From positions 1 through 35,480 of the forward strand of contig JBHLNT010000016.1 in the NCBI GenBank assembly GCA_048941265.1: a DNA stretch of 35,480 bases. Reading direction: 5' to 3'. How positions within the stretch are numbered: the first letter of the stretch is position 1; each line of letters begins with the position of its first letter. The stretch comes from Promethearchaeota archaeon. GTDB lineage: Archaea > Asgardarchaeota > Lokiarchaeia > Sigyniarchaeales > SOKP01. Positions 1,893 to 35,480 of the stretch are shown here, in pieces. A program made the position numbers and the translations under genes. The notes under the pieces were generated by a model, which saw only the letters and a list, made by a program, of their open reading frames with translations, was not told the DNA's origin and ran no database searches.

Positions 1893-3203
1893 ATGGGAAA
1901 AGATCCTCATCTAAATGCGAAAAAAGAATTAAATAAAGCTGAGCTTTATTTTGATAATGAGCAATATAAAAAAGCAGGAAAATCTTTTAAAACTGCCGGA
2001 GATTTATATTTCAAATTAAAAGAATTCAAAATTGCAAGAGAATGTTATTCATATGCCGCAAAATCTTTTGATTTTGAGAATAGAGCAGATATAACTATTG
2101 AGGCTCTAAGAAACGCAGGTGATTCTTCGCTGTTTGTTGATGATTTTACTACCTCTAATAAATTTTTTAAAAATACCATTCATTATATTCCTAATCTACG
2201 AAAACTTGAAAATCGTAATTTATACTTCTTATTTTTTTCTACACTTTCATATTTATGCTTATTTTTGGAAGGGAAACAAGATCAAGGACTGGATTTTATC
2301 AAAGAGATAAGAAAGGAAGTGGACAAGGATTATTTCAAAGATTCTATTTATATAACACTAATAAAAAATTTGACCATTGCCATCCGAGATAAAAATGAGA
2401 GTTATTTAAATAAAATCGAACAAGACTTCAACCAATATGATTTTAGTTACCCGGAACAAAAACTTTTAAAATTAGTCTTAGCACTTGCTAATGCTCATAT
2501 CTCAATAAAAACAAATATGAGTCTCGATAAAGACCAGTACACAACAAGAGATATGATTACTCTAACGTTAACTCTTGATACAGCACCCATTATTCAAGTC
2601 TCAAAACATTCTTTTTATGATTATAACTTCAAGAAAATAAAAATAACAAACATAACAACGTCCCTCTCTGAGAACATTATCGTGCAAACAAAACCCCCAC
2701 TGCCCATTGATTTAAATCCTGGTGAAAATTTTGATTTTATATTTGCTTTAAAACCACACTTTCAAGTTGATAAACCCTTTATTGGACCATTCTTAATGAC
2801 ATGCGAGTTCGATGATAAATTCATAATACATCGTCAAGATTCGGAAAAAATTGAACCAAATATCATATCTCCTCCTCCATCTTTAGAAATTTCAATGAAA
2901 AATCTTAGACCACCCCTTATTGGTCAATCATTTCCAATGGAGTTCCTAATTGAAAATAAAAGTGAAGGTGATGCTCTAGAACTCAATATTGAAATTGAAT
3001 TTCCTGAACAATTAAAATTAATGAGAGGCACTACTAAAAAGCAGATTTACTCTCTTAGTTCTAATGAGAATATCAATTGGGAACTTTCTCTTAAACCTAT
3101 AGAAGCAGGTGATTATATTATCAAAATGGACATAAAATATAAAGATCCCGACCAAAATCTAATTGAAGAGACCAAATCATTTCCTTTTGCTATTAAAATG
3201 TAA
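1893..3203 (+). CDS. TPR/alpha-SNAP-like helical repeat protein with two C-terminal Ig-like (CARDB/TRAPP-type) beta-sandwich domains
   Basis: N-terminal A-x-x-x-Y/F-x-x-A helical repeats (AGKSFKTAGDLYFKLKEFKIARECYSYAAKSF). C-terminal beta-rich segments (LNPGENFDFIFALKP; FPMEFLIENKSEGDALELNIEIEFPEQL; WELSLKPIEAGDYIIKMDIKYKD). Confidence 0.6.
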   Translation: MGKDPHLNAKKELNKAELYFDNEQYKKAGKSFKTAGDLYFKLKEFKIARECYSYAAKSFDFENRADITIEALRNAGDSSLFVDDFTTSNKFFKNTIHYIPNLRKLENRNLYFLFFSTLSYLCLFLEGKQDQGLDFIKEIRKEVDKDYFKDSIYITLIKNLTIAIRDKNESYLNKIEQDFNQYDFSYPEQKLLKLVLALANAHISIKTNMSLDKDQYTTRDMITLTLTLDTAPIIQVSKHSFYDYNFKKIKITNITTSLSENIIVQTKPPLPIDLNPGENFDFIFALKPHFQVDKPFIGPFLMTCEFDDKFIIHRQDSEKIEPNIISPPPSLEISMKNLRPPLIGQSFPMEFLIENKSEGDALELNIEIEFPEQLKLMRGTTKKQIYSLSSNENINWELSLKPIEAGDYIIKMDIKYKDPDQNLIEETKSFPFAIKM

Positions 3204-3457
3204 GGGCACAATAGTCTTCACCTTAATGATAGAAAAAATTTCCATATTACATGCATGTTTATTTTATAGTTCTCTTATTTCTCTTATCAGCTCTGAAGCT
3301 TCATTAATCTTAGTTTCAATTAAGAACTATATTTCGGAGGGAACATTAGCTATGCAATTTGAATTTTTACCTTATAATTGATAATTAATCATCTATTTTT
3401 ATTTAAAAGTTTCAAGAAAATTAGAAAAAAAAATTTTAAAAAAATGTATTAAATATT

Positions 3458-4549
3458 TCAGCTTTTTATGATTGGAACTAATTTTTCAATAACATCAATA
3501 ATTGCGATCTCTGCATTGTTTTGGTCACCTTTAGATTCGAGCAGAGAGATTGTCCGACCTTGTGCTTCAAGAAGGAGCTTAGGAATTGGAGTTGTCGAAA
3601 TATTTCCCTGATAATCCGGAGCATAGCGAACAAGCAGAGAGACGGGACAAGAAGTTGTGGTCTCTCTCAATATATCCCGAATATTCTTAATAATGACCTC
3701 ATCGGGGCTGGGGATGTCAATACTTAGAAAAATTCCGTCAAAATCATCAGGATAGCCTTTCCACCACGTATTAACATTCAGTAATTTCGGTTTCTTCAGG
3801 TTTAAAATTTCACTGGCTTCTAGTTTTCCTCCTTCTATAATAAGATGGGGAAAACGGTATGAGAAGTAGTCCTTTTCAACAGTACAATTGGACGCACATA
3901 ACAGATCGAAATTTTGCTTCACGGCATAACGAAGAGTCGGAAGCACATCCCAAGTTGATCCAAAAATGCCCAAGCGGATGGTCCGCCCTAATGAGCTCCC
4001 TATCGTTTCGAGAAAATAGATATTTTTACTTAACGCAGTGTATGGAGTCGTGTCTCCTGATTTTAATTCTTTTATTCTGTAGCGTTCCTCATTAACGAGT
4101 TCCATTAAATTCGTATTTAATTCGTCTAAACCTTGTTTAGTAATATCATTTACATCCTCTTTATTCTCGAACCAATTATCCAATGCGATTTGAATATTTT
4201 TGCGGCATCGCGAAAACAAGTGGTCGTGGCAAACTGGAAAAAAAACCATGAGAAATGTTGGTGTTAAATTTCCTTCACGTGCTACTCTGGGATCTTTAAT
4301 TGTCTCATCCTTGGCTAGAGTGCAGTAAATAAAGGAGAGCTGATCATAGTGATATGCGACGGGCAATGGACCGAAAAGGAGCCCTTTTTTATCTCGTACT
4401 GTGCTAAAAATTACCGAATAATAGTTTCCAATTGTCATAAGTTCCACTTCTTTCAAAAAGGGAACGTTTTGGGAAATCATTAACTCGATACCATTATCGG
4501 TGAGTTCGAAACAACTTATAAAAATATCCGTCGGATTCACTTTTTGCAC
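3458..4549 (-). CDS. Longin/uDENN-like N-terminal domain fused to a degenerate small-GTPase-like domain
   Basis: N-terminus resembles Asgard longin-like proteins (FISCFELTDNGIEL...GLLFGPLPV...DPR...MVFFP). The C-terminal ~175 aa keep the GTPase strand order (IRLGIFG, FDGIFLSID, PVSLLV, ISLLES..NNAEIAI) without GKT/DxxG/NKxD. The start may be the GTG at 4540, since GAGGTG precedes it. Confidence 0.55.
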   Translation of the reverse strand: MQKVNPTDIFISCFELTDNGIELMISQNVPFLKEVELMTIGNYYSVIFSTVRDKKGLLFGPLPVAYHYDQLSFIYCTLAKDETIKDPRVAREGNLTPTFLMVFFPVCHDHLFSRCRKNIQIALDNWFENKEDVNDITKQGLDELNTNLMELVNEERYRIKELKSGDTTPYTALSKNIYFLETIGSSLGRTIRLGIFGSTWDVLPTLRYAVKQNFDLLCASNCTVEKDYFSYRFPHLIIEGGKLEASEILNLKKPKLLNVNTWWKGYPDDFDGIFLSIDIPSPDEVIIKNIRDILRETTTSCPVSLLVRYAPDYQGNISTTPIPKLLLEAQGRTISLLESKGDQNNAEIAIIDVIEKLVPIIKS

Positions 4550-4564
4550 CTCTTCTCTTGTGAT

Positions 4565-5419
4565 TTATGTCATCACTGTGATTTGTTGCTGGAAAACACG
4601 AGGGCTGTACAACCCATATCTTTTTCTTAACCAATTAGGGATAAAAAACGCCCAGTAAAACCCGAGACTACTGATTACTAAGAAAGAAACGGTTAAAATA
4701 CCAAGCCCGACAGCCAACGCATAGTTCCACCCATTTGTAAAGAAGATTTGTTCGGTGAAGATTAGAGCGAAACCCATAAATAAAAACCCTAAAATGCCGA
4801 TCAACCCTACGATATACATTTCCATTCGAATTTGCATCAATTTAGAGGCATTGTCGTGTTTTTCCCTAGTCATTTGGATAAGCATATAAAGTAGAATAGG
4901 TAGTACGAGAAAATTAACAATGATATTAGGAATATTTGTTTCTGAACGCATAATAACGAAAAAGGGAATCGATCCGATTGCTAGAACTATTGCTGCTTTA
5001 TTTGCCAGAATAAGATTATTTAACCGTTTCATTCGACTTCCCGGTACGCGAATACTCCTCTGGGAGAGAACAAGCGCATAATAAAATACTAAGGCGAAAG
5101 CGGGCACCGTTCCGATACTCCTAGTAATTCCATACGTCTGATCGGTCATAAATCGGACGCTATAATCGAGACAAGTCAGGGCAGACCGCAGAGACAAGCC
5201 AAAAACTATCATCATTGCTGGAAAAAGTGTGTTGCTGATCTCTTTTTGCCGATGCCAGAATTTATATAACCGAAATCCGATAAATGCCATTATAAGCGCA
5301 CCAGATAACTCTATTAAGATAAATTCTATTGATCCCTTCGCATTGCTCCCAAAGCCGAGAATGGGGTTCTCAATCCGAAAGAGGAAAAAATCTCTTATTA
5401 CATCTAAAATTGTCGTCAT
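4565..5419 (-). CDS. Seven-transmembrane membrane protein (putative receptor/sensor)
   Basis: Seven hydrophobic segments counted by eye, basic loops (HRQK, RMKR, REKH) and a C-terminal YWAFFIPNWLRKR motif. GGTGA SD overlaps the upstream stop codon. Confidence 0.7.
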   Translation of the reverse strand: MTTILDVIRDFFLFRIENPILGFGSNAKGSIEFILIELSGALIMAFIGFRLYKFWHRQKEISNTLFPAMMIVFGLSLRSALTCLDYSVRFMTDQTYGITRSIGTVPAFALVFYYALVLSQRSIRVPGSRMKRLNNLILANKAAIVLAIGSIPFFVIMRSETNIPNIIVNFLVLPILLYMLIQMTREKHDNASKLMQIRMEMYIVGLIGILGFLFMGFALIFTEQIFFTNGWNYALAVGLGILTVSFLVISSLGFYWAFFIPNWLRKRYGLYSPRVFQQQITVMT

Positions 5420-5426
5420 TTGTAGC

Positions 5427-6368
5427 TCACCTTATCCTCCTTTCTTTAATTACGGGTTTTGTCAGCATTCTGTTTCCGAGTAGTATATAAAATTCGGCAT
5501 CTGCGTTAGAACAGTGAAATATATCAGCAGCTTCTGGTACAATGGCATTATCTTGAATAATACCTTTTTCTTTATAGTTCTTAACGATCTCTTTAACACG
5601 CCATGCCTGTTCATAGATTTCAGAGAGAACTTGGATTATTTTAGCTGTATCGTTGGATTGAATGGCTGTAGCAAGTAGATCTGTGACATGAGATTCATAC
5701 AAAGAGAAAACTTCTTGGTTCTCAAAATCTACAATAGTAAGTTTGTCCATGTGCTGTTCGACTATTATCTCCGTTTCTTGGTTAGTAGGCATTCCGATCA
5801 ATTTGAAATCGTCCGAAAAGCTCTCGGTATATGTAGCCATTAAAGTATTTTTGGCTAATTCAGAAGGTAGAAGTGAAAGGAGGGCTAAAAATAGTTTTTT
5901 GGTCCTCTGTTCTTCATTACTTAACGCTATTATCGGACTACCTGTTAGAGTCGCAAATAAGAGCCCGTTTAATCCTTTCAGTTCCGCTAGATCTGATACT
6001 GAATAATCCGTATTGATGTTAACATTTGGTAATTTACTATGAGTATTTAGATACTCATTTAATGTTTTGGTATCGGGATAAAGTGCCAAATTATCCGTGA
6101 GGTTGTCGGTAGAGGCTAGAAGAATCCCTATCAGAGCATGTTCTGGATTCCCAACATATTGTAGATAGAATGCTGTACCATTTCTAGTGATAATGTTTGA
6201 GAATGTTTCATTTGGATCGCTCACATTAATTAAAGTAAGTATCATCTGTTCCTCATCCTTAGACAAAGTACTTTCGATAAATTCAACGCCGGTATATTCG
6301 CGTGTAACTTTAATAATCCCGTATTTGAGGGTTTTATCTTGTAAAGACAATGAATTTTCTTTAACCAT
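5427..6368 (-). CDS. DENN-like protein (putative GTPase regulator/GEF)
   Basis: LLFATLTGSPIIALSNEEQRTKKLFLALLSLLP...DFKLIGMP...LTIVDFENQEV follows the cDENN pattern (LLxALL-xxxIIxxS...ALLSLLxP; FLIG; VIVDLD), preceded by a longin-like alpha/beta N-terminus and followed by a helical C-terminus. Lies 24 nt downstream of a GTPase gene. Confidence 0.6.
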   Translation of the reverse strand: MVKENSLSLQDKTLKYGIIKVTREYTGVEFIESTLSKDEEQMILTLINVSDPNETFSNIITRNGTAFYLQYVGNPEHALIGILLASTDNLTDNLALYPDTKTLNEYLNTHSKLPNVNINTDYSVSDLAELKGLNGLLFATLTGSPIIALSNEEQRTKKLFLALLSLLPSELAKNTLMATYTESFSDDFKLIGMPTNQETEIIVEQHMDKLTIVDFENQEVFSLYESHVTDLLATAIQSNDTAKIIQVLSEIYEQAWRVKEIVKNYKEKGIIQDNAIVPEAADIFHCSNADAEFYILLGNRMLTKPVIKERRIR

Positions 6369-6392
6369 GTTTTTTTCAACTCTATGTTATTT

Positions 6393-6968
6393 TTAAAATA
6401 CATTACTGCGTTCCATTGCACTTACAAACCACAGCATAGCATCTTCAACACCATTCCCAAACTTAGCGGAAGATGGTAAAAACGCCACTGTCCGTGCCTT
6501 TAATTTATCGAGAGGGTAAATTTTTCCAAATTCCTTCGGATTAATTGGATTTTCGTCTACTAAATCTTGTTTGTTCAGCAAGATCAGGATTACTGCGTCT
6601 TCGGGAATAAGATCCATGGCATAGATATACTGTTGTTTTTGAAACTCGAAAATCTCAGGCCGATTTTCCGGTCTCACCGTCGCATCAATTAGATAGATAA
6701 AGGAATTCGCTTGTTCCACAGCAAGTTCCCAGAATACTTCCTGGTACACTTGTTGGCCACCCACATCAATCAGCTGAAACCGCCAATTAGCAATTTCAAC
6801 ACCTCTTTGCCGGATTTCAATCCCTAGCGTAGACAAAGGAACTTCTAATTGGGGCATCCCTGTTTCTAGAAATTTAACCAATGTAGTCTTTCCAGATTGG
6901 GACGGACCAAGAATACTGATGTTTGCTCGTTTTTCTAATTTTCTACTTTTTAAAAGACTTTTAAGCAT
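6393..6968 (-). CDS. Arf/Sar-family-like small GTPase
   Basis: G1 GPSQSGKTT, G2 STLG, G3 DVGGQ, switch II Trp (FWE), G4 NKQD, G5 SAK, C-terminal AMLWF and N-terminal amphipathic MLKSLLKSRK. No Gly2 for myristoylation. Confidence 0.85.
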   Translation of the reverse strand: MLKSLLKSRKLEKRANISILGPSQSGKTTLVKFLETGMPQLEVPLSTLGIEIRQRGVEIANWRFQLIDVGGQQVYQEVFWELAVEQANSFIYLIDATVRPENRPEIFEFQKQQYIYAMDLIPEDAVILILLNKQDLVDENPINPKEFGKIYPLDKLKARTVAFLPSSAKFGNGVEDAMLWFVSAMERSNVF

Positions 6969-7442
6969 TGTTTTATCATTCCGTATTTTTTTTAATTCTT
7001 ATATTGATTATTTTTACAATTTGTTTACTAAATTTACAATTAACATAATCATGAACTAATAACTTAAAAGTTCACGCAGTAAAAATTTTAGGTGTATCAT
7101 AGAGACGAAAAAATGTTAAAGTCTCAATATTTAATAATAAAAAACAGGATCATATGACGCGAGATTATTTCTAATATCTCTTTAATTGACAGATCTTCAT
7201 TAAAACTCGAATTGAATTGAATTTTAAAAAAATTAAAATTAATTATAGGTCCTACTAAAAATATAGATAATCCCTTAGTTCTAATGAAAATATAAACTGG
7301 AAACATGAAGTATTTTTCTGCAATATGTTTAGAAATACAATAAATAGTACAAATTTATATATTTCATATTAAATTTTATACATTGTGGTTTTTTAACTTA
7401 CAACTAAATACAGTATCAAAATAAAAAATCAAAAAAATTGAA

Positions 7443-8192
7443 GTGGTAATAATACCAACAGAAGAAGAAAAATTAGAATTAACAAAAAAACAGATAAAAA
7501 TAGAACGTGTTAAGAATGTTATTCTTGATGGAGCGATAAATTTATTGTCAAACCACCCTTATGAAGATATCTCAATGAATGATATTGCTGATGAGGTTGC
7601 ATTGAGTAGAGCGACAATCTATAACTATTTTAATAAAAAAGAGGATGTCTATTTTGGAATTTTCAATAAAGAATTAGATGAAATTTGCACTAAATATTTG
7701 TCAAGATCCGCCAATCCTAAATCAGAATATGATGAAACTCTATTGATGGCAAAGCTCTTATTCAAAAAACTACATAAAAATCCTTTAATTTTTAGGATTT
7801 ACACCTATTTTTTAGCTAAATTACAAGAATTAAATTTATCAGGCGAAGAATTAATTAGCAACAATGGATTTAATATTGATTATATCAAATCACAAATTCC
7901 CTCTGATTCTGATCATACCAGCTTTATTAAACTGATTGAAACCTTTAATAAGTATGTGAGATTAGCATTTATGGATATAATAAAAAACTCCAATCCGAAA
8001 ATAGTCCAATCTCCATTAAAATTAGTGCAGCTTTACTATATGTTAAGTATTATAATAAATGGATATGGAATAACCTCAAGTTTTCCATTACAACCTAAAA
8101 GTCAGATAAAAAGTACGAATGATAAAGTCGTAAAAGTGCTATTAGAACTGATAGAGAAAATTGCTAAAGGAGATATTTCAATCGATTTTTAA
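7443..8192 (+). CDS. TetR/AcrR family transcriptional regulator
   Basis: ILDGAINLLSNHPYEDISMNDIADEVALSRATIYNYFNKKEDVY is a canonical TetR HTH. Divergent from the GTPase operon; exact start uncertain. Confidence 0.88.
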   Translation: MVIIPTEEEKLELTKKQIKIERVKNVILDGAINLLSNHPYEDISMNDIADEVALSRATIYNYFNKKEDVYFGIFNKELDEICTKYLSRSANPKSEYDETLLMAKLLFKKLHKNPLIFRIYTYFLAKLQELNLSGEELISNNGFNIDYIKSQIPSDSDHTSFIKLIETFNKYVRLAFMDIIKNSNPKIVQSPLKLVQLYYMLSIIINGYGITSSFPLQPKSQIKSTNDKVVKVLLELIEKIAKGDISIDF

Positions 8193-8218
8193 TAGAATTC
8201 GAAATTCGTAATGTCCCT

Positions 8219-8761
8219 CTATTTAGGACGGGTTATAATTAGATTGGTAAGTCTTTCAAAAAGTAAAGACACATTTTCACCCGTTTTAGCGGAACATTCA
8301 AGATAATCATAAACTCCATTAAAGGACTCGGCAATTTCCTGTGCATCCTCAAAGCTAACAGCTCTTTTATATTCCAAATCTTTTTTGCTTCCAACCATTA
8401 ATAGAGGAATTTTTGATCCATTTTTCTTACCACCCTCTTCAAAAATTTCCATCCAACTGTTAAAATTTCTAAAACTGGAAAACCTCGTGATATCATACAA
8501 GAAAATTGCGCCAGCTGTCCCTAATAAATAGTTAGGAAGAATGAATCTGAAACGGTCTTCCCCAGCAAAATCCCATATTTGTAAAGTAACCGCCCGTCCA
8601 TTAAATTCTAAATTTTTTATGTAAAAATTAACACCAATTGTTATTTTTAGGTTATCTTTAAAAACATCCGTCAGATAACGGTTAATCAGAGTTGTTTTAC
8701 CAACCCCCCCATCCCCAAGAATGCAGATCTTGTATATCATTTGAGACATTAACTGAGACAT
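8219..8761 (-). CDS. Rab-like small GTPase
   Basis: GDGGVGKTT, TIGVNF, LQIWDFAGEDRF, GSKKDL, ECSAKTGENV. No C-terminal prenylation Cys. The catalytic Gln is replaced by Glu (DFAGE). Confidence 0.9.
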   Translation of the reverse strand: MSQLMSQMIYKICILGDGGVGKTTLINRYLTDVFKDNLKITIGVNFYIKNLEFNGRAVTLQIWDFAGEDRFRFILPNYLLGTAGAIFLYDITRFSSFRNFNSWMEIFEEGGKKNGSKIPLLMVGSKKDLEYKRAVSFEDAQEIAESFNGVYDYLECSAKTGENVSLLFERLTNLIITRPK

Positions 8762-8999
8762 TCTAATTTAATCTCCAAAATTATTCTAATTTTAAACCTG
8801 TTATTTTTTGTTGATCAATACGATTTATTGACCCTTGACTGTATTAAGATAATAAAATTATTAGTATAAAAAGTTTATGGATAGCCAAAATTTTTAACAG
8901 TATGTCAGAATATTTCAAATTATTTTAATACCAATAAAATTTTAAATCTGTTTTTTCATATATCAATAATCTGAAATCAAACTAAAAATAAGGAAAAAA

Positions 9000-10529
9000 A
9001 TGAAGCTAAAAGTAAAAAAAATCAATTTTGAGACAGGAAATACCAAAGATGTAATTATTAATGTTAAAGATGCTGCTGAACTTGGTCAAAAAGCCGGTGA
9101 ACGAATTATTATTAAAAATATTAAATCTAAATCGATAAACAATAAATCTCGGGTTGCGATTATAGAAATTTCTTATTCCGATACCATAGTTGCTCCAGGA
9201 GAGATTGGAATATTTATAGATACTATTAAAGATATAGAAGAAAATACAATTGTCTCAGTAAAACCTATTGATCCTCCTGATTCATTTAAATTTATTCGGA
9301 AAAAAACTCGAGGTGAAAAATTAACTAGTGAAGAAATTAATAGAATCATCTCAGATGCAGTCTCAGGTCATCTTTCCCAAATCGAATTGGCTTCATTTAT
9401 AACTAGCGTGAAAATAAATGATATGGATAACGAAGAGATGACCGCTTTAACCTTAGCTGAAACTAGAAGCGGGGAAATTTTTTACTTTGGCATGGACGTA
9501 TATGATAAACATTCAACTGGTGGTGTTCCAGGCAATAAAGTATCTTTAATAATCGTACCTATTGTGGCAGCTGCTGGATTAATTATTCCAAAAACTAGTA
9601 CACGTGCTATTACATCACCTTCCGGAACCGCAGATAGTATGGAAGTTTTAGCTCCAGTTGCTTTTAATTCTGAAGAAGTGAAAGAAATTATCTCGAAAGA
9701 AAAAGCATGTATCGTATGGGGAGGGGCATTAGATATCTCACCTGCCGATAATATCTTAATTGAGATTGAGCGCCCCTTACGTATGGATCCAGTAGGTTTA
9801 ATGATTCCCTCTATCTTAACAAAAAAACTTTCTATGGGGGTTAAGAAATTAATATTAGATATTCCAGTTGGTGGAGGAACGAAATTTCCAACTATTAATG
9901 ATGGAGAAAGTTTTGCCCATATTTTTAAAGGAATTGCCCGAAATGTAGGAATTGAAGCTGAATGTGCCTTAACATTAGCACATCAACCTATTGGTCATTG
10001 TATTGGTCCTGCGATTGAGGCTCAGGAAGCCTTAACATTATTGAGAGATTATTCCGCAGGACCTAATTCTCTTATTGAAAAATCAACATCTCTTGCAGGA
10101 ATACTTCTTGAAATGGGAGGAAAAGCAGAAAAAGGAAAAGGTCAATATTTAGCAAAAGAAATTTTGAAAACTGGTAAAGCTTATGAAAAAATGAAGCAAA
10201 TCATTGAGATACAGGGCGGAAATCCTAATATTTTACCAGATGATATTGAATTAGGACCACATGAGAAAAAGTTTACGGCAACTAAAGAGGGACACATAAC
10301 TGAAGTGAATAATGCGATTATTAATCAAATTGCAAAAGCAGCAGGCTGTCCAAATTCAAGAACTTCGGGAGTAAAACTTTATAAAAAGCAGGGCGCGCGA
10401 ATTAAAGAAGGCGATTTAATTTTCAAGATCTATTCAGATAGTCCTTCAAAATTGAAGAGGGCAGAAAAAATATATAATTCTACTGGAGGACCTATAATTC
10501 TGGGTGGGATGATGATTGAGAGGATCTAA
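9000..10529 (+). CDS. deoA: AMP phosphorylase (thymidine phosphorylase family, archaeal long form)
   Basis: DKHSTGGVPGNK, IPKTSTRAITSPSGTADSMEVLAPV, WGGALDISPAD, QPIG..IGPAIEA and an N-terminal beta extension; 509 aa. Confidence 0.93.
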   Translation: MKLKVKKINFETGNTKDVIINVKDAAELGQKAGERIIIKNIKSKSINNKSRVAIIEISYSDTIVAPGEIGIFIDTIKDIEENTIVSVKPIDPPDSFKFIRKKTRGEKLTSEEINRIISDAVSGHLSQIELASFITSVKINDMDNEEMTALTLAETRSGEIFYFGMDVYDKHSTGGVPGNKVSLIIVPIVAAAGLIIPKTSTRAITSPSGTADSMEVLAPVAFNSEEVKEIISKEKACIVWGGALDISPADNILIEIERPLRMDPVGLMIPSILTKKLSMGVKKLILDIPVGGGTKFPTINDGESFAHIFKGIARNVGIEAECALTLAHQPIGHCIGPAIEAQEALTLLRDYSAGPNSLIEKSTSLAGILLEMGGKAEKGKGQYLAKEILKTGKAYEKMKQIIEIQGGNPNILPDDIELGPHEKKFTATKEGHITEVNNAIINQIAKAAGCPNSRTSGVKLYKKQGARIKEGDLIFKIYSDSPSKLKRAEKIYNSTGGPIILGGMMIERI

Positions 10530-10764
10530 TTTATGTCATTTTTAAATAACTTTACTTAATTACAGGGGTAATATTAATAAGTAAGTTTCTATTATCGCTT
10601 GAGATGTTCACTTTTTCATTTTTATATACAATTTATTTTATTTTTGAAATTTTTGAAATTATACCATTTTCTTGTCAAATTCTTGTTTTATTAGAATTGA
10701 ATTGAAAGGATTTAATATTTTACAATATTATTAGACTTATTGATTGCGAGAAGAAAAACGAAAT

Positions 10765-12261
10765 ATGGTCCAGTCGCCCATAACAGTATATGAGAATTTA
10801 AAAAAAGGCAAAATAGATAAACTTTCAGCTACAGAAATTCTAATCTCATTAATCGAAAATATAGATGAGGTAGAGGTTAGACTAGAAAGTATCAATACTT
10901 TACAAAAAATTAGATTTAGAAATAATAAGGTTTTTTCAATATTAGAAAACCTTTTACTCGCTGATTCTAATGAGAATATTCGAAATTCAGCAGGTAATGT
11001 CTTAACAGATTTATTTGAAAACAAAGCATTATCTCCACTAAAATGGGCTTTGGAACATGAAAAATCATTAAATTGCTTAACAAATACAATTTCAAATATA
11101 GGAAATATTGATGATAATAAAGCTAAATACGTTATTTTAAACAAAATAAGTGAAATTAACAAAAAAAAATACCGATATAATCTTAAAATAATATTCAAAG
11201 AAAATAATATAAACTCACTTTCTAATAAGGAACTCGCTGAATTGCTCATTGATTATTATATAATCTCTTCATTAAAGATAAAATTTGGATATCTTAAATT
11301 TGAATCAAATAAAAGTGGTTCGGTAATAAATTTAGATTTATCCAATGTTGATGTACAAAGTATTAATAAATTAACGAATTATTTGGAATCTATATTATCT
11401 CTCTCTTTTCTGCGAAATCTTGATTTAAGTAACAATGATTTGATGAGATTACCTTTAAAACCTGATAAAAAACTCTCCCTCGAACAGCTGAATCTAAGTT
11501 ATAATAGGTTAATTAAACTTCCAGAATCAATAAGCACCCTAAAATTACTAAAATCGTTAAATTTGAAATTCAATAAATTGAGAAATCTGCCTGATTCTAT
11601 TGGTACTCTAATAAATCTTGAATATTTAAATATAAGATCAAATCAACTTAAAAATCTGCCTGATTCTATTGGCTCTTTAAAAAAACTCAAAATTTTAGAT
11701 TTACAGGGAAACAAGCTTACACACTTACCTAAAGCATTAGCTGATCTTAAAAGTCTGAAAGAGCTGCAATTAGGTGGAAATAATTTTAATGAAATTCCTG
11801 GAAGTATTAAAGTTCTGAAATCCTTGAAAAATTTAGGATTGGAAAGAAATAATTTTTCCACTATTCCAAAATGGTTTGAAAATCTTAATTCTCTCAAAGA
11901 GTTAGATTTACATGATAACTTTTTAATTGAAATTCCAAATAATAATTCATTACCACCTTCTCTTGAACTCCTAAATTTTAGAAATAATAAACTCTCATCA
12001 ATTCCATTTTCATTAACTCATCTTATTTATCTAAAAAGGTTAAATTTATCATGGAATAACCTAAGAGAGCTTCCAGATTGGATAGGAGCTCTAACTTCTC
12101 TGGAAGAATTAAATTTATGGGGTAATAAATTGAATACTCTTCCAGATTCGATCATAAAACTTAAATTTCTCAAAAATCTTTATTTAAATTTTACAAATAT
12201 AAAAGAACTGCCTGATTCATTAAAGTTATTGGAAAAGAGAGGGGTTAAAATTAGTCTATAG
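10765..12261 (+). CDS. HEAT-repeat + LRR protein (paralogue 1)
   Basis: N-terminal HEAT-like LENLLLADSNENIRNSA...PLKWALEHE, then 23-aa LxxLxLxxNxLxxLPxxI repeats. ATG 10765 aligns with the paralogue starts (ORF track starts at TTG 10744). Confidence 0.88.
   Translation: MVQSPITVYENLKKGKIDKLSATEILISLIENIDEVEVRLESINTLQKIRFRNNKVFSILENLLLADSNENIRNSAGNVLTDLFENKALSPLKWALEHEKSLNCLTNTISNIGNIDDNKAKYVILNKISEINKKKYRYNLKIIFKENNINSLSNKELAELLIDYYIISSLKIKFGYLKFESNKSGSVINLDLSNVDVQSINKLTNYLESILSLSFLRNLDLSNNDLMRLPLKPDKKLSLEQLNLSYNRLIKLPESISTLKLLKSLNLKFNKLRNLPDSIGTLINLEYLNIRSNQLKNLPDSIGSLKKLKILDLQGNKLTHLPKALADLKSLKELQLGGNNFNEIPGSIKVLKSLKNLGLERNNFSTIPKWFENLNSLKELDLHDNFLIEIPNNNSLPPSLELLNFRNNKLSSIPFSLTHLIYLKRLNLSWNNLRELPDWIGALTSLEELNLWGNKLNTLPDSIIKLKFLKNLYLNFTNIKELPDSLKLLEKRGVKISL
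11583..11672 (+). repeat. Exact 21-bp direct repeat (AAATCTGCCTGATTCTATTGG) in adjacent LRR units
   Basis: Copies at 11583-11603 and 11652-11672, 69 bp (one 23-aa LRR) apart. Confidence 0.85.
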
Positions 12262-12354
12262 CTTTCAATTCAATATTTTTGTATAAAAAATCGTGTTGTT
12301 ATAAAATAAAATCAAAACTTTAAAAATAATAAAGCAATTTATTGAACTAGAATA

Positions 12355-13860
12355 ATGGAAATATCTCCAAAACAGATTTACAAAGAGTACACTGATAAAA
12401 ATTTAGCCGCAATGAATGCAGTAGATCAATTAATTTCATTAATTGACAATTCAGATACTGCTGACATTAGAATTGAAAGTATAGAATTCTTAGAAAAAAT
12501 TGGTTCTAAAGATGATAATGTGTTTAACCATTTAGAAAATCTACTAATATCTGATTCAAATGAGAATGTAAGAAATAAAGCTGCACGAGCTATCAAAAAT
12601 CTTTTTATTGATAAAGCCTTTGAACCAATGAAATGGGCTTATCATCATGAAACATCAGTAAATTGCTTAATCATAATTATTTCGACTTTAGGTGAAATTA
12701 GGAGCCAAAAATCTCAACAATTTTTAATTAATATAATGAAAAAAATTGAAAATCATCAATTTAAAAAAAGTATCAATGAATTCTTTAAAAATGAAGAATT
12801 TAATAGACTTTCCAATCAGGTTCTCGCTGATATTGTTAATAATTATATTGTAATTAAGAATTTTGAAGAAAAATTTACGAAAATCAGCTATAAAATTAAT
12901 AATGGATTTGTTGCTGAATTAGATCTATCTTGTATTAGTAGCAATATTTTTGGATGGAATATTTTAAAAAACCTCCCGGATTTTATAAGTGTCTTAAAAT
13001 ACTTAAAAAAACTCGATTTAAAAATTAACAGAATCGCATCATTGCCAACCTCAATCGGCTCTCTTTCATCACTTAAATATCTAGATTTGAGTAATAATGT
13101 CATTAAGCGTTTGCCAGAATCAATTGGTAATTTAAATCTATTAGAATTTCTTTATCTACGATATAATAATTTAAAAAACATTCCAAAATCTATTGGCTTA
13201 TTGAAGAATCTAAAAATATTAGATTTAAGACACAATAAATTATCATCTCTCCCCGAGACAATTCATAACTTATACTCTCTTGAAGTCTTTGATCTTCATG
13301 GAAATCAAATAGATGAACTTCCCGTTTCTCTAAAGCAGATCTCATCTCTTAAGAAATTAGAATTAGGGTTAAATAATCTAAAATTTTTACCAATTTGGAT
13401 GAAAGATCTCAGAGATTTAAAAATTTTGGGATTGGGAGGAAATAAACTATTATTTAAACTTCCTGAATGGATTGGATCATTATCTTCTCTCTTAGAATTA
13501 CATTTATACGATAATAATCTTAGTGAACTCCCAAATTCTATAGGTTTATTAAGTTCTTTGGAAGAATTAACATTGCGAAATAATCAACTTACTACACTAC
13601 CAGAATCATTTAGAAATTTATATTGTCTTAAAAAATTAAATTTAAGTTGGAATAACTTTACAAACCTCCCCGATTGGATTGGTTCTCTGACATCTTTAGA
13701 AGAATTAAATTTATGGGGAAATAAACTCAAAAATCTTCCCGATTCAATTAGGAATCTCACATCTCTAAAGGTTATAAATTTAAATTTTAATAAATATATC
13801 ACTGAACTTCCCGAATCCATTAAATACTTGGAAAAAAAAGGAGTTATTATCTATATATAA
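12355..13860 (+). CDS. HEAT-repeat + LRR protein (paralogue 2)
   Basis: Same N-terminal module (LENLLISDSNENVRNKAA...PMKWAYHHE) and regular LRRs; last repeats nearly identical to paralogue 1. Confidence 0.9.
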   Translation: MEISPKQIYKEYTDKNLAAMNAVDQLISLIDNSDTADIRIESIEFLEKIGSKDDNVFNHLENLLISDSNENVRNKAARAIKNLFIDKAFEPMKWAYHHETSVNCLIIIISTLGEIRSQKSQQFLINIMKKIENHQFKKSINEFFKNEEFNRLSNQVLADIVNNYIVIKNFEEKFTKISYKINNGFVAELDLSCISSNIFGWNILKNLPDFISVLKYLKKLDLKINRIASLPTSIGSLSSLKYLDLSNNVIKRLPESIGNLNLLEFLYLRYNNLKNIPKSIGLLKNLKILDLRHNKLSSLPETIHNLYSLEVFDLHGNQIDELPVSLKQISSLKKLELGLNNLKFLPIWMKDLRDLKILGLGGNKLLFKLPEWIGSLSSLLELHLYDNNLSELPNSIGLLSSLEELTLRNNQLTTLPESFRNLYCLKKLNLSWNNFTNLPDWIGSLTSLEELNLWGNKLKNLPDSIRNLTSLKVINLNFNKYITELPESIKYLEKKGVIIYI

Positions 13861-13887
13861 AAATAATATGCAATGTGAAATAAAAAA

Positions 13888-15246
13888 ATGGAATTAACGC
13901 CCAGTAAAATCTACGAAGAATATTTAAAAAATAATCTAGATAAATTCTCTGCAGTAGATTTATTATTTTCATTAATAGATAATAGTGATAAAGAAAAAAT
14001 AAGAGTTGAGAGTATTAAGGAATTGGAACATATCAGAATAAATGATGTTAAAACATTTAAACATTTAGAACATTTATTAATTTCAGACTCAAGTGAAAAG
14101 GTAAGAAACACAGCGGCTTTAATGCTCAGAAGCCTTTTCTTAGATAAAGCATTAGAGCCAATGAAATGGGCGTTAAAACATGAGGATTCACCTTTATGCT
14201 TAAAAACGATTTATTTAACCCTTTTGGAAATAATTCACAATATTGTTTCACGAGAAGATGAGATATCCAAGCTAGTATTACTTACCGAAGTAGAGAAAAT
14301 TGAAAATAAAGAATTTAAAATTGGATTTGAAACATTACGTGAATTGAATGGAATCGAGAGTTTTACAGTAGCGGAATTAGCTAATATTTTAATTAATTAC
14401 TTAACCCTATTATTCTTAAAAAAAACTTACTGGAGATTAAAATTTAAAATTGAATCCTGTAAAATTGTAGAATTAGACTTTATTTTTAAAGGATTAACAC
14501 ATTTACCAGAAGCCATAAAGAATCTTACTTCTCTTAAAACACTAATTTTTAGATATAATCAAATATTTGAATTACCAGATTGGATTGGATCGCTAACTTT
14601 GCTTGAAAATTTAAATTTTAATGTTAATAATATTAAAAAACTCCCTTATACTATAGGATCACTAACTTCTCTTAAATCTTTGTCACTTTGGAAGAATGAA
14701 ATTAAATCCCTTCCCGATACTTTAGGTTTATTAATTTCCTTAGAAATCCTTAATCTAAGAATTAATGATTTAAAAGAATTGCCAGAAACCATCGGGAATT
14801 TAAATCTTCTTAAGGAATTGAATTTACATGATAATAAGTTGCATATAATACCCCATTCAATAGGGTCTTTATTCTCATTAAAATCTCTTAATTTAAGTTG
14901 GAACAATTTGGGAGTTATTCCTGAAACTATCGGTTCACTTGATTCCCTTGAAATTTTAGATTTGGAGAGAAATGAATTAACCTCTATTCCTGGATCTATT
15001 GGCTTTTTAAAATCCTTAAAAAGTTTAAATTTAAGTGATAATAGATTAGTAGAACTTCCTGAGTCCTTAGGATCTTTGTCACCACTTCAATATCTTAATA
15101 TCTCGAGAAACTATTTGAAAACAATTCCAAAATCTTTAACAAAATTATCAAATTTAAATGAGCTATATTTAAATGATAATAAATTTAATGATATTTCAAA
15201 TATACTAGAAGAGTTAGAAAATAATGGTGTTCAAATTTATTATTAA
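13888..15246 (+). CDS. HEAT-repeat + LRR protein (paralogue 3)
   Basis: LEHLLISDSSEKVRNTAA...PMKWALKHE followed by LRRs of the LPxxIGxLxxL type. Confidence 0.9.
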   Translation: MELTPSKIYEEYLKNNLDKFSAVDLLFSLIDNSDKEKIRVESIKELEHIRINDVKTFKHLEHLLISDSSEKVRNTAALMLRSLFLDKALEPMKWALKHEDSPLCLKTIYLTLLEIIHNIVSREDEISKLVLLTEVEKIENKEFKIGFETLRELNGIESFTVAELANILINYLTLLFLKKTYWRLKFKIESCKIVELDFIFKGLTHLPEAIKNLTSLKTLIFRYNQIFELPDWIGSLTLLENLNFNVNNIKKLPYTIGSLTSLKSLSLWKNEIKSLPDTLGLLISLEILNLRINDLKELPETIGNLNLLKELNLHDNKLHIIPHSIGSLFSLKSLNLSWNNLGVIPETIGSLDSLEILDLERNELTSIPGSIGFLKSLKSLNLSDNRLVELPESLGSLSPLQYLNISRNYLKTIPKSLTKLSNLNELYLNDNKFNDISNILEELENNGVQIYY

Positions 15247-24857: not shown

Positions 24858-25805
24858 ATGAGTTTAACCCCATTAAAAATCTATCAAGATTTAAAGGAAA
24901 ATAAATTAGATAGAAAAAGTGCTGCGGAAATTTTATTAATGTTAATTGAAAACAGCGAAGATGATGATGTGAGAATTGAAAGCATAAAATTATTAGAAAA
25001 GATCGGTTTCAAAAATGACAAGCTTTTCAAAGTCTTAGAAGGTTTGTTAATTTCTGATTTAAATGAGAGAGTTAGATATATCGCGGCGGTATATATTACA
25101 GATTATTTTATAGACAGAGCACTCTCACCTATGAAATGGGCCCTTGAATATGAATCAAATTATGATTGCCTAATTTTAATTATTAAAACACTAGCTAAAA
25201 TCGGCAGCAACGAAGCTAAAGAAACATTATTAGATGACCTAAAGAGGATTAAGAAAAGAAAATACATAGATAAAGATAGGCAATATCATAATAAGTTTAA
25301 AAAGTCTCTTAAAAAATTATTAAAATCCAAGAAGATTAAAAACCTCCATTGTGAAGATTTGGCTGATATAATAATTAATTACAAAACTATTGAAACGCTG
25401 ATTAAAACTTTTTTTACAATATATTATAAAGTCGAAAATGGTTTAGTTACCGAATTAGATTTATCAGATTTGGGATGGAATGTAAATGTATGGAGGCAAA
25501 AATATGCAGAAAAAGTCGAGGAAATATCCGAAATAGTTGGTCTCATGAATTTAAAGAACTTAAAATCACTTGATCTTTCTAATAATAGGATTAGCTTTAT
25601 TAAAGATCTCCTAAACCTTAAGAAATTAACTCACTTATACATTTCCAACAATAAATTGAATTTGGATAATATAGAATTTTTTGAAAAGATGGATAATTTA
25701 AAATTTTTAGATATACATGGAAATGAAATCGCTACTAGCATTAAATTTCTTGAACTTAGAAAAAAATTAGATGTTAAATTAAAGAGTAATCTCCTATTTG
25801 AATGA
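24858..25805 (+). CDS. HEAT-repeat + short SDS22-type LRR protein (paralogue 4)
   Basis: Same N-terminal HEAT module (LEGLLISDLNERVRYIAA...PMKWALEYE) and about 3 LRRs (LKSLDLSNNRI, LTHLYISNNKL, LKFLDIHGNEI). Confidence 0.85.
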   Translation: MSLTPLKIYQDLKENKLDRKSAAEILLMLIENSEDDDVRIESIKLLEKIGFKNDKLFKVLEGLLISDLNERVRYIAAVYITDYFIDRALSPMKWALEYESNYDCLILIIKTLAKIGSNEAKETLLDDLKRIKKRKYIDKDRQYHNKFKKSLKKLLKSKKIKNLHCEDLADIIINYKTIETLIKTFFTIYYKVENGLVTELDLSDLGWNVNVWRQKYAEKVEEISEIVGLMNLKNLKSLDLSNNRISFIKDLLNLKKLTHLYISNNKLNLDNIEFFEKMDNLKFLDIHGNEIATSIKFLELRKKLDVKLKSNLLFE

Positions 25806-25882
25806 AGTATTTAACTATTTAAATTTCAGATTATTCAAATAATTAAAAAGGTAGCTATACATATTTTTTTATCTGAGTGAAG

Positions 25883-26842
25883 ATGGAATTAACACCTGAA
25901 AAGATTTTCGAAGATTTTAATGATAAGAAAATAAATAAAAATACTGCAGTTGAATTATTAATCTCTTTAATCGATAATAACGACTATGAAGATACTCGAA
26001 TTGAATGTATTGAAAAGCTTAAACAAATTAGCGTTAATAATGATAAATTTTTTCATTATATGGAAAATTTATTCATCTCGGATTTAAATGCAAAAGTTAG
26101 ATGTGCTGCAGCTAACTATATTAAAGATTTTTTTCTTGATAAAGCTCTTTCTCTTATTAAATGGGCTGTAGAATATGAAACTGATTACACTTGTCTATGT
26201 ATGATTATCCAAACACTAATAGAATTAAATAATAATGAATCTAAATCAGTTTTAGTTGATATGATTAAAAATATCAGAAAAACCAAATATCTTGACGAAA
26301 AAAACAGGATCGAAAATAAAAAATTCAAGAGGGCTATTAAAAAATTGATAAAAAGAGAAAAGATTAAAAATTCCACCCATAAGGAATTGGCTGAAATCAT
26401 TATAAATTATTTAACAATATCAGCATTGACAAAAAAGTTTTATTCTGTATATTTTGAATTAGAAGATGCTTTAGTTGTTAAATTGGATTTAGCTGATGTG
26501 GAATATGAAGTAAGGGGCTGGAAATCAGATTTTAAAAATAACATAAAGGAATTTAATGAAATCACGGGTATAGAATTTCTAAAAAGTTTAACTCATCTAA
26601 ATTTATCAAATAATCAAATAAGCAATATTGAAGAATTGTTAAAATTAAAAAACCTCACTCATTTATATATATCTAATAATAAAATCAAAAACTTAGAAAA
26701 TTTAGAATATTTTAAAGAATTACCAAATCTTAAATATGTGGATATTTCTGGAAATCCCATTCTCGAACATTTAAACTCTCATAATTTTAAGAATAACAGA
26801 TTTAGTAATATAAAAATCGTATTGAAAAAACATAAATTCTAA
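25883..26842 (+). CDS. HEAT-repeat + short SDS22-type LRR protein (paralogue 5)
   Basis: MELTPEKIF start matches the paralogues (ATG 25883); MENLFISDLNAKVRCAAA...IKWAVEYE; about 3 LRRs. Confidence 0.85.
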   Translation: MELTPEKIFEDFNDKKINKNTAVELLISLIDNNDYEDTRIECIEKLKQISVNNDKFFHYMENLFISDLNAKVRCAAANYIKDFFLDKALSLIKWAVEYETDYTCLCMIIQTLIELNNNESKSVLVDMIKNIRKTKYLDEKNRIENKKFKRAIKKLIKREKIKNSTHKELAEIIINYLTISALTKKFYSVYFELEDALVVKLDLADVEYEVRGWKSDFKNNIKEFNEITGIEFLKSLTHLNLSNNQISNIEELLKLKNLTHLYISNNKIKNLENLEYFKELPNLKYVDISGNPILEHLNSHNFKNNRFSNIKIVLKKHKF

Positions 26843-28194: not shown

Positions 28195-29523
28195 TTATTC
28201 AATTAATTTTGTTTTTCCAGTTCCCCAGAGTCCTAAAGCGCGACCTAATTCTTTATGATCTTTTGCATAATCTTTTACTGGAATCCCCTGCATTACGGCA
28301 TTTATCGCTTGTCTGAAGGCGCGGGCACCATCTATGGGACCATCAGGATGGCTGTGAATCCCACCTCCACTGCCGATCAAAATATCAAGTCCTGCTTCCT
28401 TCATGGTTTTCTCTACCATACCTTGAGTAATCCCTCCTGAGGGCATAGGTAATGTTGGCCTAATATGTTGAAGGGGATATCTGAGAGCTTTCAAATTTTG
28501 CTCGTATTTCTCGTCTAAAATTTCTGCTTTTCCATAAGGAGCAGGAATTACTACGGAATCTGCCCCGCAAATTCTTGGTAATTTCGCTAATGTTAGCATA
28601 CTTGTCATTCCGGTCCATTCTCCGCCAAAATAAGCTCCAGCAAAATCCATATGTCCTAAAATAGGCACTTTAATAGAAGGATCTTCCGCTAATTGTCTCA
28701 TTGCCTCAAAACCTGCGGATAAGTAATTAATCATCAGCGCATTCGCTCCCATTTCGATCATTTTGTCCGCATTTTCAAACATATCTGGAAATTTGCCGGT
28801 TATGTTAATAGTATATAACGTTTTTTCACCTTTCTCCGAATCAGCTCTGTCAAGCGCTTCCATATAGGCAGATAATCTATCTTCCAATGTGTTAAAGGAG
28901 GGATTGGCAATTAATTCATCATCTTTTACTACATCACAACCTCCAACAGCTGCTTGATATAACAAATCAGCTCCTACATCGCAAGTGTGTCCAGTACAAG
29001 GCTTAATCATGTTGTTTAATAGGGGTCTTTCTGGAATTTTCAAAAGTTCTCGAAGACCGTCAATCCCGAATTTAGGACCCTTGAAATCCTCTAACCACGC
29101 TTTTGGAAAAGCTAAATCTACTAATTTTAATCCGTGGGTGATACTAATATTTCCAATAACTGTTGTAAAGAGCATTGGAATTCCATCTCCTTTAATGTTA
29201 ACTATTGGAAAGCCAATCTGCGCAAAATAAAGGCGTTCGTCAGTACCTTTTGGGATTACATACTCCCAACTTGGCAATTCGTACACACCAAGGACCCGTG
29301 CAACGTGATATTTTCTAACTTCATGAGTTTCAGCGGGAACTCTAATCCAAGTTCCGGTCGACTGTTCAATAGCCGCAAAGCGAGCCAGGTAATTTACATT
29401 CATTCCCTTCGGTCGCTTGATGATGTAGCTTGCTATGATATACTTTTCCAAATCGATCCCGTCCAAGCCAATTGCTTCTGGGGTATCGAAATATTTTTCA
29501 CAACTTTCAAACGGAGTTTCCAT
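28195..29523 (-). CDS. RuBisCO-like protein (form IV)
   Basis: EQSTGTW, GPKFGIDG, KDDE, PMPSGG and GGGIHSHPDG are retained, but KPCTG (vs KPKLG), HMD (vs HRA) and VIPAPYGK (vs HxGTxxGK) show loss of carboxylase residues. Confidence 0.88.
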   Translation of the reverse strand: METPFESCEKYFDTPEAIGLDGIDLEKYIIASYIIKRPKGMNVNYLARFAAIEQSTGTWIRVPAETHEVRKYHVARVLGVYELPSWEYVIPKGTDERLYFAQIGFPIVNIKGDGIPMLFTTVIGNISITHGLKLVDLAFPKAWLEDFKGPKFGIDGLRELLKIPERPLLNNMIKPCTGHTCDVGADLLYQAAVGGCDVVKDDELIANPSFNTLEDRLSAYMEALDRADSEKGEKTLYTINITGKFPDMFENADKMIEMGANALMINYLSAGFEAMRQLAEDPSIKVPILGHMDFAGAYFGGEWTGMTSMLTLAKLPRICGADSVVIPAPYGKAEILDEKYEQNLKALRYPLQHIRPTLPMPSGGITQGMVEKTMKEAGLDILIGSGGGIHSHPDGPIDGARAFRQAINAVMQGIPVKDYAKDHKELGRALGLWGTGKTKLIE

Positions 29524-35320: not shown

Positions 35321-35480
35321 AAATATGTACCATTCTTTGATGAATAAGTTTTTTGTATGAAAATTAAAGTACATTCAAAATTTTTTTTATGAAAAATTTG
35401 TTAAATTTTATAACAAATCTTATAACATAGATGATCTGTTAATATTTAAATTCTTTTTAAAGCCAAATTTTTTAAACATA

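Follow-up and report, generated by a model that had tools for sequence, protein, structure and literature searches.

The window analysed here is the whole 35,480-nucleotide stretch at positions 1-35480 of contig C138 (JBHLNT010000016.1), taken from the 5.0 Mb Asgard genome GCA_048941265.1 (G000; GC content 30.5%), and our subject is a cassette of four genes on its minus strand, which we call A, B, C and D in their order A-B-C-D. An earlier reading of the letters alone (the sequence-only reading) had pointed to these four co-oriented open reading frames (ORFs) and to intergenic gaps of 24, 7 and 15 nt, and the same values were obtained when coordinates and gaps were re-measured. The genes are:

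6393..6968, minus strand: A, Arf-related small GTPase (ArfR-like), 191 aa; G1-G5 intact, short N-terminal amphipathic helix, no Gly2
5427..6368, minus strand: B, longin (uDENN)-cDENN-dDENN protein, 313 aa; conserved Arg23, C-terminal lobe predicted to be the C-binding part
4565..5419, minus strand: C, seven-transmembrane (7TM) protein, 284 aa; probably N-out/C-in, rhodopsin/G protein-coupled receptor (GPCR) topology, no Lys in the seventh transmembrane helix (TM7)
3458..4549, minus strand: D, FLCN/SMCR8/NPRL2-like longin (7-157) followed by a P-loop-less pseudo-Arf (170-363), 363 aa; Arg88 invariant

Shine-Dalgarno motifs had been reported across the genes; they are clear before C and D, but none is clear before A or B. 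D probably starts at GTG 4540 (360 aa, the C-D gap then being 24 nt), because GTG 4549 falls within a GAGGTG motif and relatives start near residue 4; for B an alternative start at TTG 6350 is possible. Promoter and terminator scans, made with bacterial-type models on an archaeal host, remained at chance level. The assembly of the cassette is supported by bridging contigs from other runs, which span the junctions between the host gene and D (X2), D and C, C and B (both X3), and B and A (X2); X2 comes from the same study as X1 and X3 from a separate one, and X1, as the possible source, was excluded from bridging. B, C and D are single-copy in the source genome by tblastn.

The four gene products

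The motifs of A (GPSQSGKTT, DVGGQ, NKQD and SAK), with G1-G5 intact and the DxGGQ of Arf type, together with a Pfam Arf match at 9.7e-21, back the earlier view of an intact Arf-type GTPase. Its best PDB sequence match was HodArfR1 (8oul, 1.8e-14), and the best 60 of 95 PDB matches were all Arf/Arl-family chains or the Asgard entries 8ouk-8oun; Pfam G-alpha scored 20.7 bits, under its cut-off of 48.8, and A, with 191 aa, has no G-alpha helical domain. The amphipathic N-terminal helix previously proposed holds over 7 residues (moment 0.72) but is weak over 9-11 (0.30-0.34), and six of seven relatives of A display moments of 0.50-0.66 over 11 residues. In a quick tree the cassette GTPases formed one clade (22 of 106 rows; Shimodaira-Hasegawa-like approximate likelihood ratio test, SH-aLRT, 98), of which A is the sole member among the 80 GTPase domains of the source genome; the GTPase trees held no reference ArfR or eukaryotic rows. 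Second GTPase copies were observed at other loci, either ahead of the cassette together with a winged-helix regulator gene (f18 loci L039, L040 and L080) or nearby (f14 loci L066, L068 and L069).

Structure comparison of B revealed a longin-cDENN-dDENN fold, bearing out the DENN-like assignment made from the letters. The Atlas model of B matched a DENND10 cluster with a template modelling score (TM-score) of 0.58 over 238 residues, both sides being predicted models, and bacterial GAP1-N2 also with 0.58. Feature hits were led by Njmu-R1 (0.92), UDENN (0.89) and C9orf72 (0.87), with folliculin clusters too; as just four of the top ten have a family or clan in common, B is not assigned to an exact family. 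At cut-off none of 71 B members gave a Pfam DENN-clan sequence match, SPA (one member, E 0.089) and GAP1-M (two members, E 0.0011) lying below it; no family in Pfam or NCBIfam was found for B or D, and the B profile gave no matches among PDB sequences. Arg23 is kept in 57 of 59 family rows, and some relatives bear a GP motif at the position it has in longins of GTPase-activating proteins (GAPs). Stand-alone relatives of B also occur (L061, L063, L067, L072, L073, L074, L077), several of them among translation and signal recognition particle-like genes; three have a changed strand at the site predicted in B to bind C.

C shows seven hydrophobic peaks in its sequence, and its model (predicted local distance difference test, pLDDT, 80.8) has seven helices plus a short eighth, in agreement with the 7TM protein foreseen earlier. 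An N-out/C-in orientation is favoured by the distribution of basic residues. When the model was compared by VIA-align, the best 50 rows were all microbial rhodopsins, GPCRs or designed GPCR folds (Z 12.3-15.7), the top one being KR2 (Z 15.7, root-mean-square deviation (rmsd) 4.7, 238 aligned), with rhodopsins and GPCRs tied. Helical bundles easily score high by chance and a Foldseek search with the same model returned nothing at E<=0.001; for these reasons the match is read as describing the topology of C and not its descent. Moreover, judged by the retinal Lys, C is not a microbial rhodopsin, there being no Lys in TM7 (233-258). No family was found for C in Pfam or NCBIfam (none of 22 members was convincingly matched), and a search of 61 genomes with the single C sequence gave matches in two, C itself and a weak one. 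Inside loops are more conserved than outside ones (0.40 vs 0.28, p=0.0008), and a conserved basic motif lies at the start of TM6.

For D, the longin and the GTPase-shaped C-terminus described by the sequence-only reading were both recovered by structure comparison of a model with pLDDT 80.5 (alignment of six sequences). The longin (7-157) matched Asgard longin 8yqg (Z 14.3), C9orf72-SMCR8 7o2w (Z 11.6, rmsd 3.1, 138 aligned), folliculin 6nzd (Z 11.1, rmsd 3.0, 133 aligned), Lst4 (Z 10.9) and 8fw5 (Z 9.2, rmsd 3.6, 133 aligned), and the C-terminal domain matched HodArfR1-GDP including its N-terminal helix (Z 13.8, rmsd 4.0, 170 aligned). No sequence homology was detectable between the C-terminus of D and A, nor between the longins of D and B, so that both kinships rest on folds. 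We gathered from the studied loci a set of 39 D-like proteins of 320-420 aa; all 39 have Arg88 and Gly20, and none of the 37 rows aligned at the P-loop has GKT there. In the model Arg88 sits in the loop that links strand 70-80 to strand 95-105, which we take to be the equivalent of the eukaryotic arginine-finger loop.

D-like genes were also seen in other settings. At f13 loci (L046, L047, L050-L052, L054-L056) D paralogues adjoin four membrane-protein genes, none of the stretches viewed showing a GTPase gene; other genes near them are presumably DegV-like and hydrolase-like. At L097:6587-9862 (G145) four co-oriented genes resemble the cassette in make-up but come from other subfamilies; they encode a D-like protein (338 aa, arginine kept), what is probably a longin protein (218 aa), a GTPase of the Arf family (177 aa) and a protein of 7TM type (326 aa). 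At L098:3523-6692 (G139) the gene of a folliculin-like protein, which has the motifs GP and ARG and matches Pfam Folliculin with E 3.8e-4, is divergent from an Arf-family GTPase gene, followed by a D-like gene.

The sequence-only reading expected the products to interact, and for one pair a complex was predicted: residues 10-306 of B and 24-284 of C gave a score of 0.70, the best control reaching 0.00. Of 157 solved pairs 116 attain the score mark, as do 2 of 215 mismatched ones, figures that are roughly applicable here as own alignments were used. Runs shared at least 89% of contacts, with partner pLDDT of at least 75. The C side of the interface (124-130, 186-194 and 269-274) is all cytoplasmic and includes P126, E186, A191-L194 (ASKL) and G269, which had been listed as conserved before modelling; the B side (132-138, 200-226 and 272-293) belongs to the DENN/dDENN lobe and leaves the longin free. 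On the strength of this model we consider it probable that B binds C; we know of no solved complex of this kind.

Occurrence and mobility of the cassette

Profile searches were run on 400 Asgard genomes, and the counts include the source genome. Matches to D were found in 86 genomes (mostly longin paralogues), to B in 30 (alignment A3) and to C in 15. Five of the 399 other genomes have the whole set side by side, as B-C-A-D in G074 and C-B-A-D in G146-G149, and the set is also present on metagenome contigs L006 and L007. The source genome is of another class than its relatives in the phylum that carry these genes. Elsewhere the steadier core is A, B and C, with D replaceable: the arrangement is A-B-C-X in G102 and G103, A-B-C in G104 and B-C-A in G109.

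At loci without D (L062, L065, L068, L069, L082, L085) C is followed by gene X, whose product of ~250 aa has a CxxC at the N-terminus and no family in Pfam; the C-terminal half of X may be a further degenerate GTPase or have a DENN-like fold. A specific ending in a D-like pseudo-GTPase was considered and is unproven, as hhalign gave P=0.26 and then P=0.021 (probability 2%; reversed control P=0.32). A 7TM gene lying between A and B in G064 (L071) was likewise rejected as a member of the C family, its leave-out score being 6 bits; it is an unrelated 7TM protein and was not counted.

Since the profiles were partly built from cassette neighbours, leave-out tests were carried out: B, C and D of the source genome each ranked first of 4469 ORFs (B at 1.6e-30), and 21 of 22 C members passed at 50-139 bits against a background of <=31. 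A deeper B profile matched 65 of the 83 genomes of G147's class, with 17 loci in 15 genomes at E<1e-40. C directly adjoins B at 12 of these 17 strong loci, two being cut by contig ends; as a background, 150 of 3711 source-genome ORFs (4.0%) have C-like size and hydrophobicity. In the 12 pairs measured the B-C gaps range from -4 to +7 nt, with overlapping stop and start codons, and the adjacency persists over at least four rearrangements in five families. A natural A-B fusion was also found (P0036, 497 aa, labelled Heimdallarchaeota), whose residues 1-190 are 44% identical to A and 200-488 belong to the B family; being a single protein on two contigs, it could possibly be a read-through artefact. 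Gene order, folds and helix number were the points on which the sequence-only reading had declared itself open to refutation: the gene set recurs, the folds match and the helices are seven. We regard it as very likely that the four genes constitute one functional module.

In this genome the cassette lies within an interval that congeners lack, and the associated features are:

3204..8999 (5.8 kb): interval absent from the orthologous site in congeners; cassette, TetR gene and Rab-like gene
2977..3084, plus strand: left copy of a decayed direct repeat, inside the flanking host gene (1893-3203) towards its 3' end; identity with 7201-7304 is 78% in 108 aligned columns
7201..7304, plus strand: decayed non-coding repeat copy upstream of A; blastn E 2.3e-12 against the genome
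7443-8192: TetR gene in the insertion
8219-8761: Rab-like GTPase gene in the insertion; DNA 79% identical to a paralogue in the C250 GTPase cluster, outside the cassette clade

The genes flanking 3204-8999 are ~60 nt apart in three of five congeners (G005, G006 and G009); of the remaining two, one has them on separate contigs and one matches neither. Full-length B was not found in 134 same-family genomes, nor elsewhere among 161 of the class. Among 3711 ORFs the percentiles of GC content at third codon positions are 98.9, 96.8, 99.7 and 99.3 for A, B, C and D, and 24-45 for the two flanking genes and TetR. The simplest reading is a horizontal acquisition of the cassette, recent in this genome, and the repeat copy at 7201-7304 is possibly a scar of the insertion. 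The cassette is a real, conserved and mobile Asgard module, which moves between Asgard lineages. The f14 lineage was examined as donor; A groups with f14 (88/97), the approximately unbiased test keeps the alternative (p=0.12), and no donor is claimed. Nor was a 7300-to-3091 joint in run X2 used as a sign of a circle, the repeat being more probable.

Regarding the surroundings of the insertion, the host gene at 1893-3203 is conserved and has weak SNAP/TPR and TRAPPC13 C-terminal Pfam matches under cut-off. Five paralogues with HEAT and leucine-rich repeats form two tandem groups (10744-15246 and 24858-26842). A nucleoside/AMP phosphorylase-type gene (9000-10529) and one for a RuBisCO large subunit (28195-29523) make up what we take to be the gene pair of the archaeal AMP salvage route. 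Finally, 29793-35374 and C138 35597-41506 are two tandem pairs in which a probable surface protein of large size (1486 and 1601 aa) is followed by a protein of 367-368 aa, the latter appearing longin-like by eye.

Mechanism and alternatives

What might such a module do? The account we put forward, to which we give an even chance, is that of a membrane-tethered switch, with C anchoring a B-D longin pair that acts on A as a GAP like folliculin or C9orf72-SMCR8. Membrane-embedded C would hold the DENN/dDENN lobe of B through its conserved cytoplasmic ASKL motif, as the model suggests, and the free longin of B would pair with that of D, in the manner of FNIP-folliculin and C9orf72-SMCR8. Arg88 of D, by its invariance, its position in a loop and its analogy with SMCR8 R147, would be the arginine finger speeding GTP hydrolysis on A, which when GTP-loaded would bind the membrane via its N-terminal helix, as is expected from its family. 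An outside cue at the variable outer face of C would then change the recruitment or pose of B-D and set local A-GTP, and the pseudo-Arf of D, modelled in the shape of Arf-GDP, may be a non-catalytic docking or auto-inhibitory module. We lean slightly towards D being the GAP subunit for A, and find the case for C as a true sensor not quite as good as an even one. A complete receptor-to-small-GTPase pathway, with a ligand-sensing 7TM protein of GPCR topology controlling an Arf-family GTPase via a directly bound DENN/longin complex, either GAP or guanine nucleotide exchange factor (GEF), is a tentative suggestion. The sequence-only reading had drawn analogies to GPCR and to Rag/folliculin systems; folliculin/C9orf72-SMCR8 fits better, whereas the GPCR analogy suffers from a 7TM protein predicted to bind the regulator and from a GTPase that is a plain Arf relative, not G-alpha.

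Several observations weigh against the GAP switch. The GP motif of GAP longins is not present in D, where G20 (39 of 39) is followed by M, I, L or V in the 37 aligned proteins (I21 in D itself, M in 28 of 39); Arg88 remains a putative counterpart of FLCN R164 and SMCR8 R147 at residue level, and D bears a pseudo-Arf where the eukaryotic subunits bear a DENN module. In family f13 the arginine is kept by at least 20 paralogues of D, and no GTPase gene lies within ~6 kb of those viewed; given these, the arginine may have a role other than that of a GAP finger. The stretches examined at the G102-G104 and G109 loci contain no D. With regard to B and C, the C interface is more conserved than the rest (0.55 vs 0.33, p=2e-5), a figure not independent of the predictor alignment, and the B interface only marginally so (p=0.054); three of the 17 strong B loci have no adjoining C, the B gene is interrupted by an in-frame stop in G149 and split in L007, and the genomes are kin, so that counts overstate independence.

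The main rival makes B a DENN-type GEF, recruited or activated by C, so that the receptor turns A on, while an off-switch or effector function falls separately to D or gene X. The classical role of DENN modules is that of GEFs for Rab proteins (PMC3521125), B is closest by structure to DENND10-like clusters and has its own conserved Arg23, A, B and C are found without D, and the fusion P0036 joins precisely A and B. However, the feature hits of B include GAP-type C9orf72 and folliculin, and some of its relatives carry GP at the GAP-longin position. We hold this exchange role to be unlikely, if still worth serious attention; it is compatible with D as GAP, and the two could coexist.

A mobile conflict or defence switch comparable to the bacterial DO-GTPase-GAP1 systems, in which a GTPase-DENN core gates an effector, would accord with the patchy distribution, the recent insertion, the resemblance of B to GAP1-N2 and the membrane link of those systems (PMC7159879). 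We nevertheless judge it improbable: the loci viewed contain no enzymatic effector, FNIII or GASH gene, PADLOC gave no meaningful match (two hits near E 0.007), D was not found in phage records or viral contigs, and A is an Arf relative and not a DO-GTPase.

Fainter still is the chance of a proto-GPCR, that is, of C acting as exchange factor by binding A or the pseudo-Arf of D directly in its cytoplasmic cavity. The topology of C, the basic motif at the start of TM6, the membership of Arf and G-alpha in one GTPase clade (PMC3521125) and the adjacency of C to A in G074 and G109 speak for it, but in the model the conserved motif of C is occupied by B, the constant neighbour of C is B and not A, and A lacks the G-alpha helical domain. 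That eukaryote-like genes were merely co-transferred as a cluster without shared function is very hard to believe, for although each family also occurs alone and gene order varies, the adjacency survives the rearrangements noted above and is joined by overlapping stop/start codons, the fusion and the B-C model.

Comparison with known systems

In the literature searched no description of an Arf-DENN-7TM cluster was found; figures and supplements may list these proteins, and most subscription journals lay outside the search. The parts of the cassette are known Asgard protein types, 7TM proteins among them, which already figure in Asgard signature families (10.64898/2026.10.28.762692), and it is their combination that we did not find described. 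By membership tests the cassette does not belong to the FLCN/CSW, GPCR or rhodopsin families.

With GPCR-heterotrimeric G protein systems it has in common a 7TM fold, N-out, with a conserved cytoplasmic face and a GTPase of the Arf/G-alpha clade nearby. It differs in having neither a G-alpha helical domain nor beta/gamma genes in the cassette, in that C is without a sequence family match, and in that the predicted partner of C is the DENN protein. C as a GPCR coupled to a heterotrimeric G protein was accordingly rejected, the cassette GTPase being a 191-aa Arf relative with G-alpha below cut-off. The DO-GTPase-GAP1 (PMC7159879) and MglAB operons are likewise mobile, pair a GTPase with a DENN-like or roadblock regulator and are often membrane-linked; the cassette has another GTPase class, no variable effectors and a 7TM component, and the hallmarks of DO-GTPase-GAP1 (DO-GTPase, GASH or FNIII partner, variable effectors) were not seen in the loci viewed.

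Among Asgard systems, an operon of a LAMTOR1-like roadblock, a Rab-like GTPase and a DENN protein has been proposed as an FLCN-like regulator present in most Asgards (10.1101/2020.10.19.343400). Both are Asgard operons pairing a small GTPase with a DENN protein, but the cassette has an Arf-related GTPase, no roadblock gene, an added 7TM protein and longin-pseudo-Arf, and a patchy spread (B in 30 of 400 genomes). Regarding the Asgard ArfR/AArf proteins (10.1101/2024.02.28.582541; PMC11914678), A is nearest to HodArfR1 and longin-AArf fusions are mentioned in PMC11914678; the Arf domain of D, however, has no P-loop, and the accessible parts of those papers give no native regulators or gene neighbourhoods. 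PMC11914678 (2025) states that the Arf GTPases of Asgards have no identified regulators as yet, and according to PMC10933270 longin genes as a rule do not share operons with the GTPase genes of MK-D1, so that GAPs and GEFs are hard to match to them. The cassette puts forward a GTPase together with its presumed partners: two longin proteins, an arginine that may be catalytic, and a protein that would serve as anchor in the membrane through a predicted interface. These are the first concrete candidates for the control of Arf-type switches in native cells of the Asgards, the archaea most closely related to eukaryotes. The cassette is also relevant to the question of when GTPase switches acquired their first link to 7TM proteins: if the receptor-to-GTPase pathway were true, such proteins would have been coupled to GTPases of the Arf/G-alpha clade before there were heterotrimeric G proteins. 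The system occurs mainly in the Asgard class with the closest kinship to eukaryotes.

The closest comparison is with the longin GAPs GATOR1, FLCN-FNIP and C9orf72-SMCR8-WDR41, the last being an Arf GAP recruited by the transporter PQLC2; PMC12290439 describes the two-longin pocket and SMCR8 R147, states that Asgards have arginine-finger longins and asks whether ArfR is their client. Two longins, one with a conserved arginine, an Arf-family client and a polytopic membrane recruiter are shared. In the cassette, by contrast, a pseudo-Arf replaces the DENN module in D, the Pro of GP is missing and an adaptor like WDR41 is lacking; direct binding to the DENN lobe is predicted for a membrane partner of rhodopsin/GPCR topology, and the whole is a prokaryotic gene cluster. 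Should the receptor-to-GTPase pathway hold, the cassette would offer a present-day model for the ancestor of the longin GAPs of the lysosome, namely folliculin, GATOR1 and C9orf72-SMCR8.

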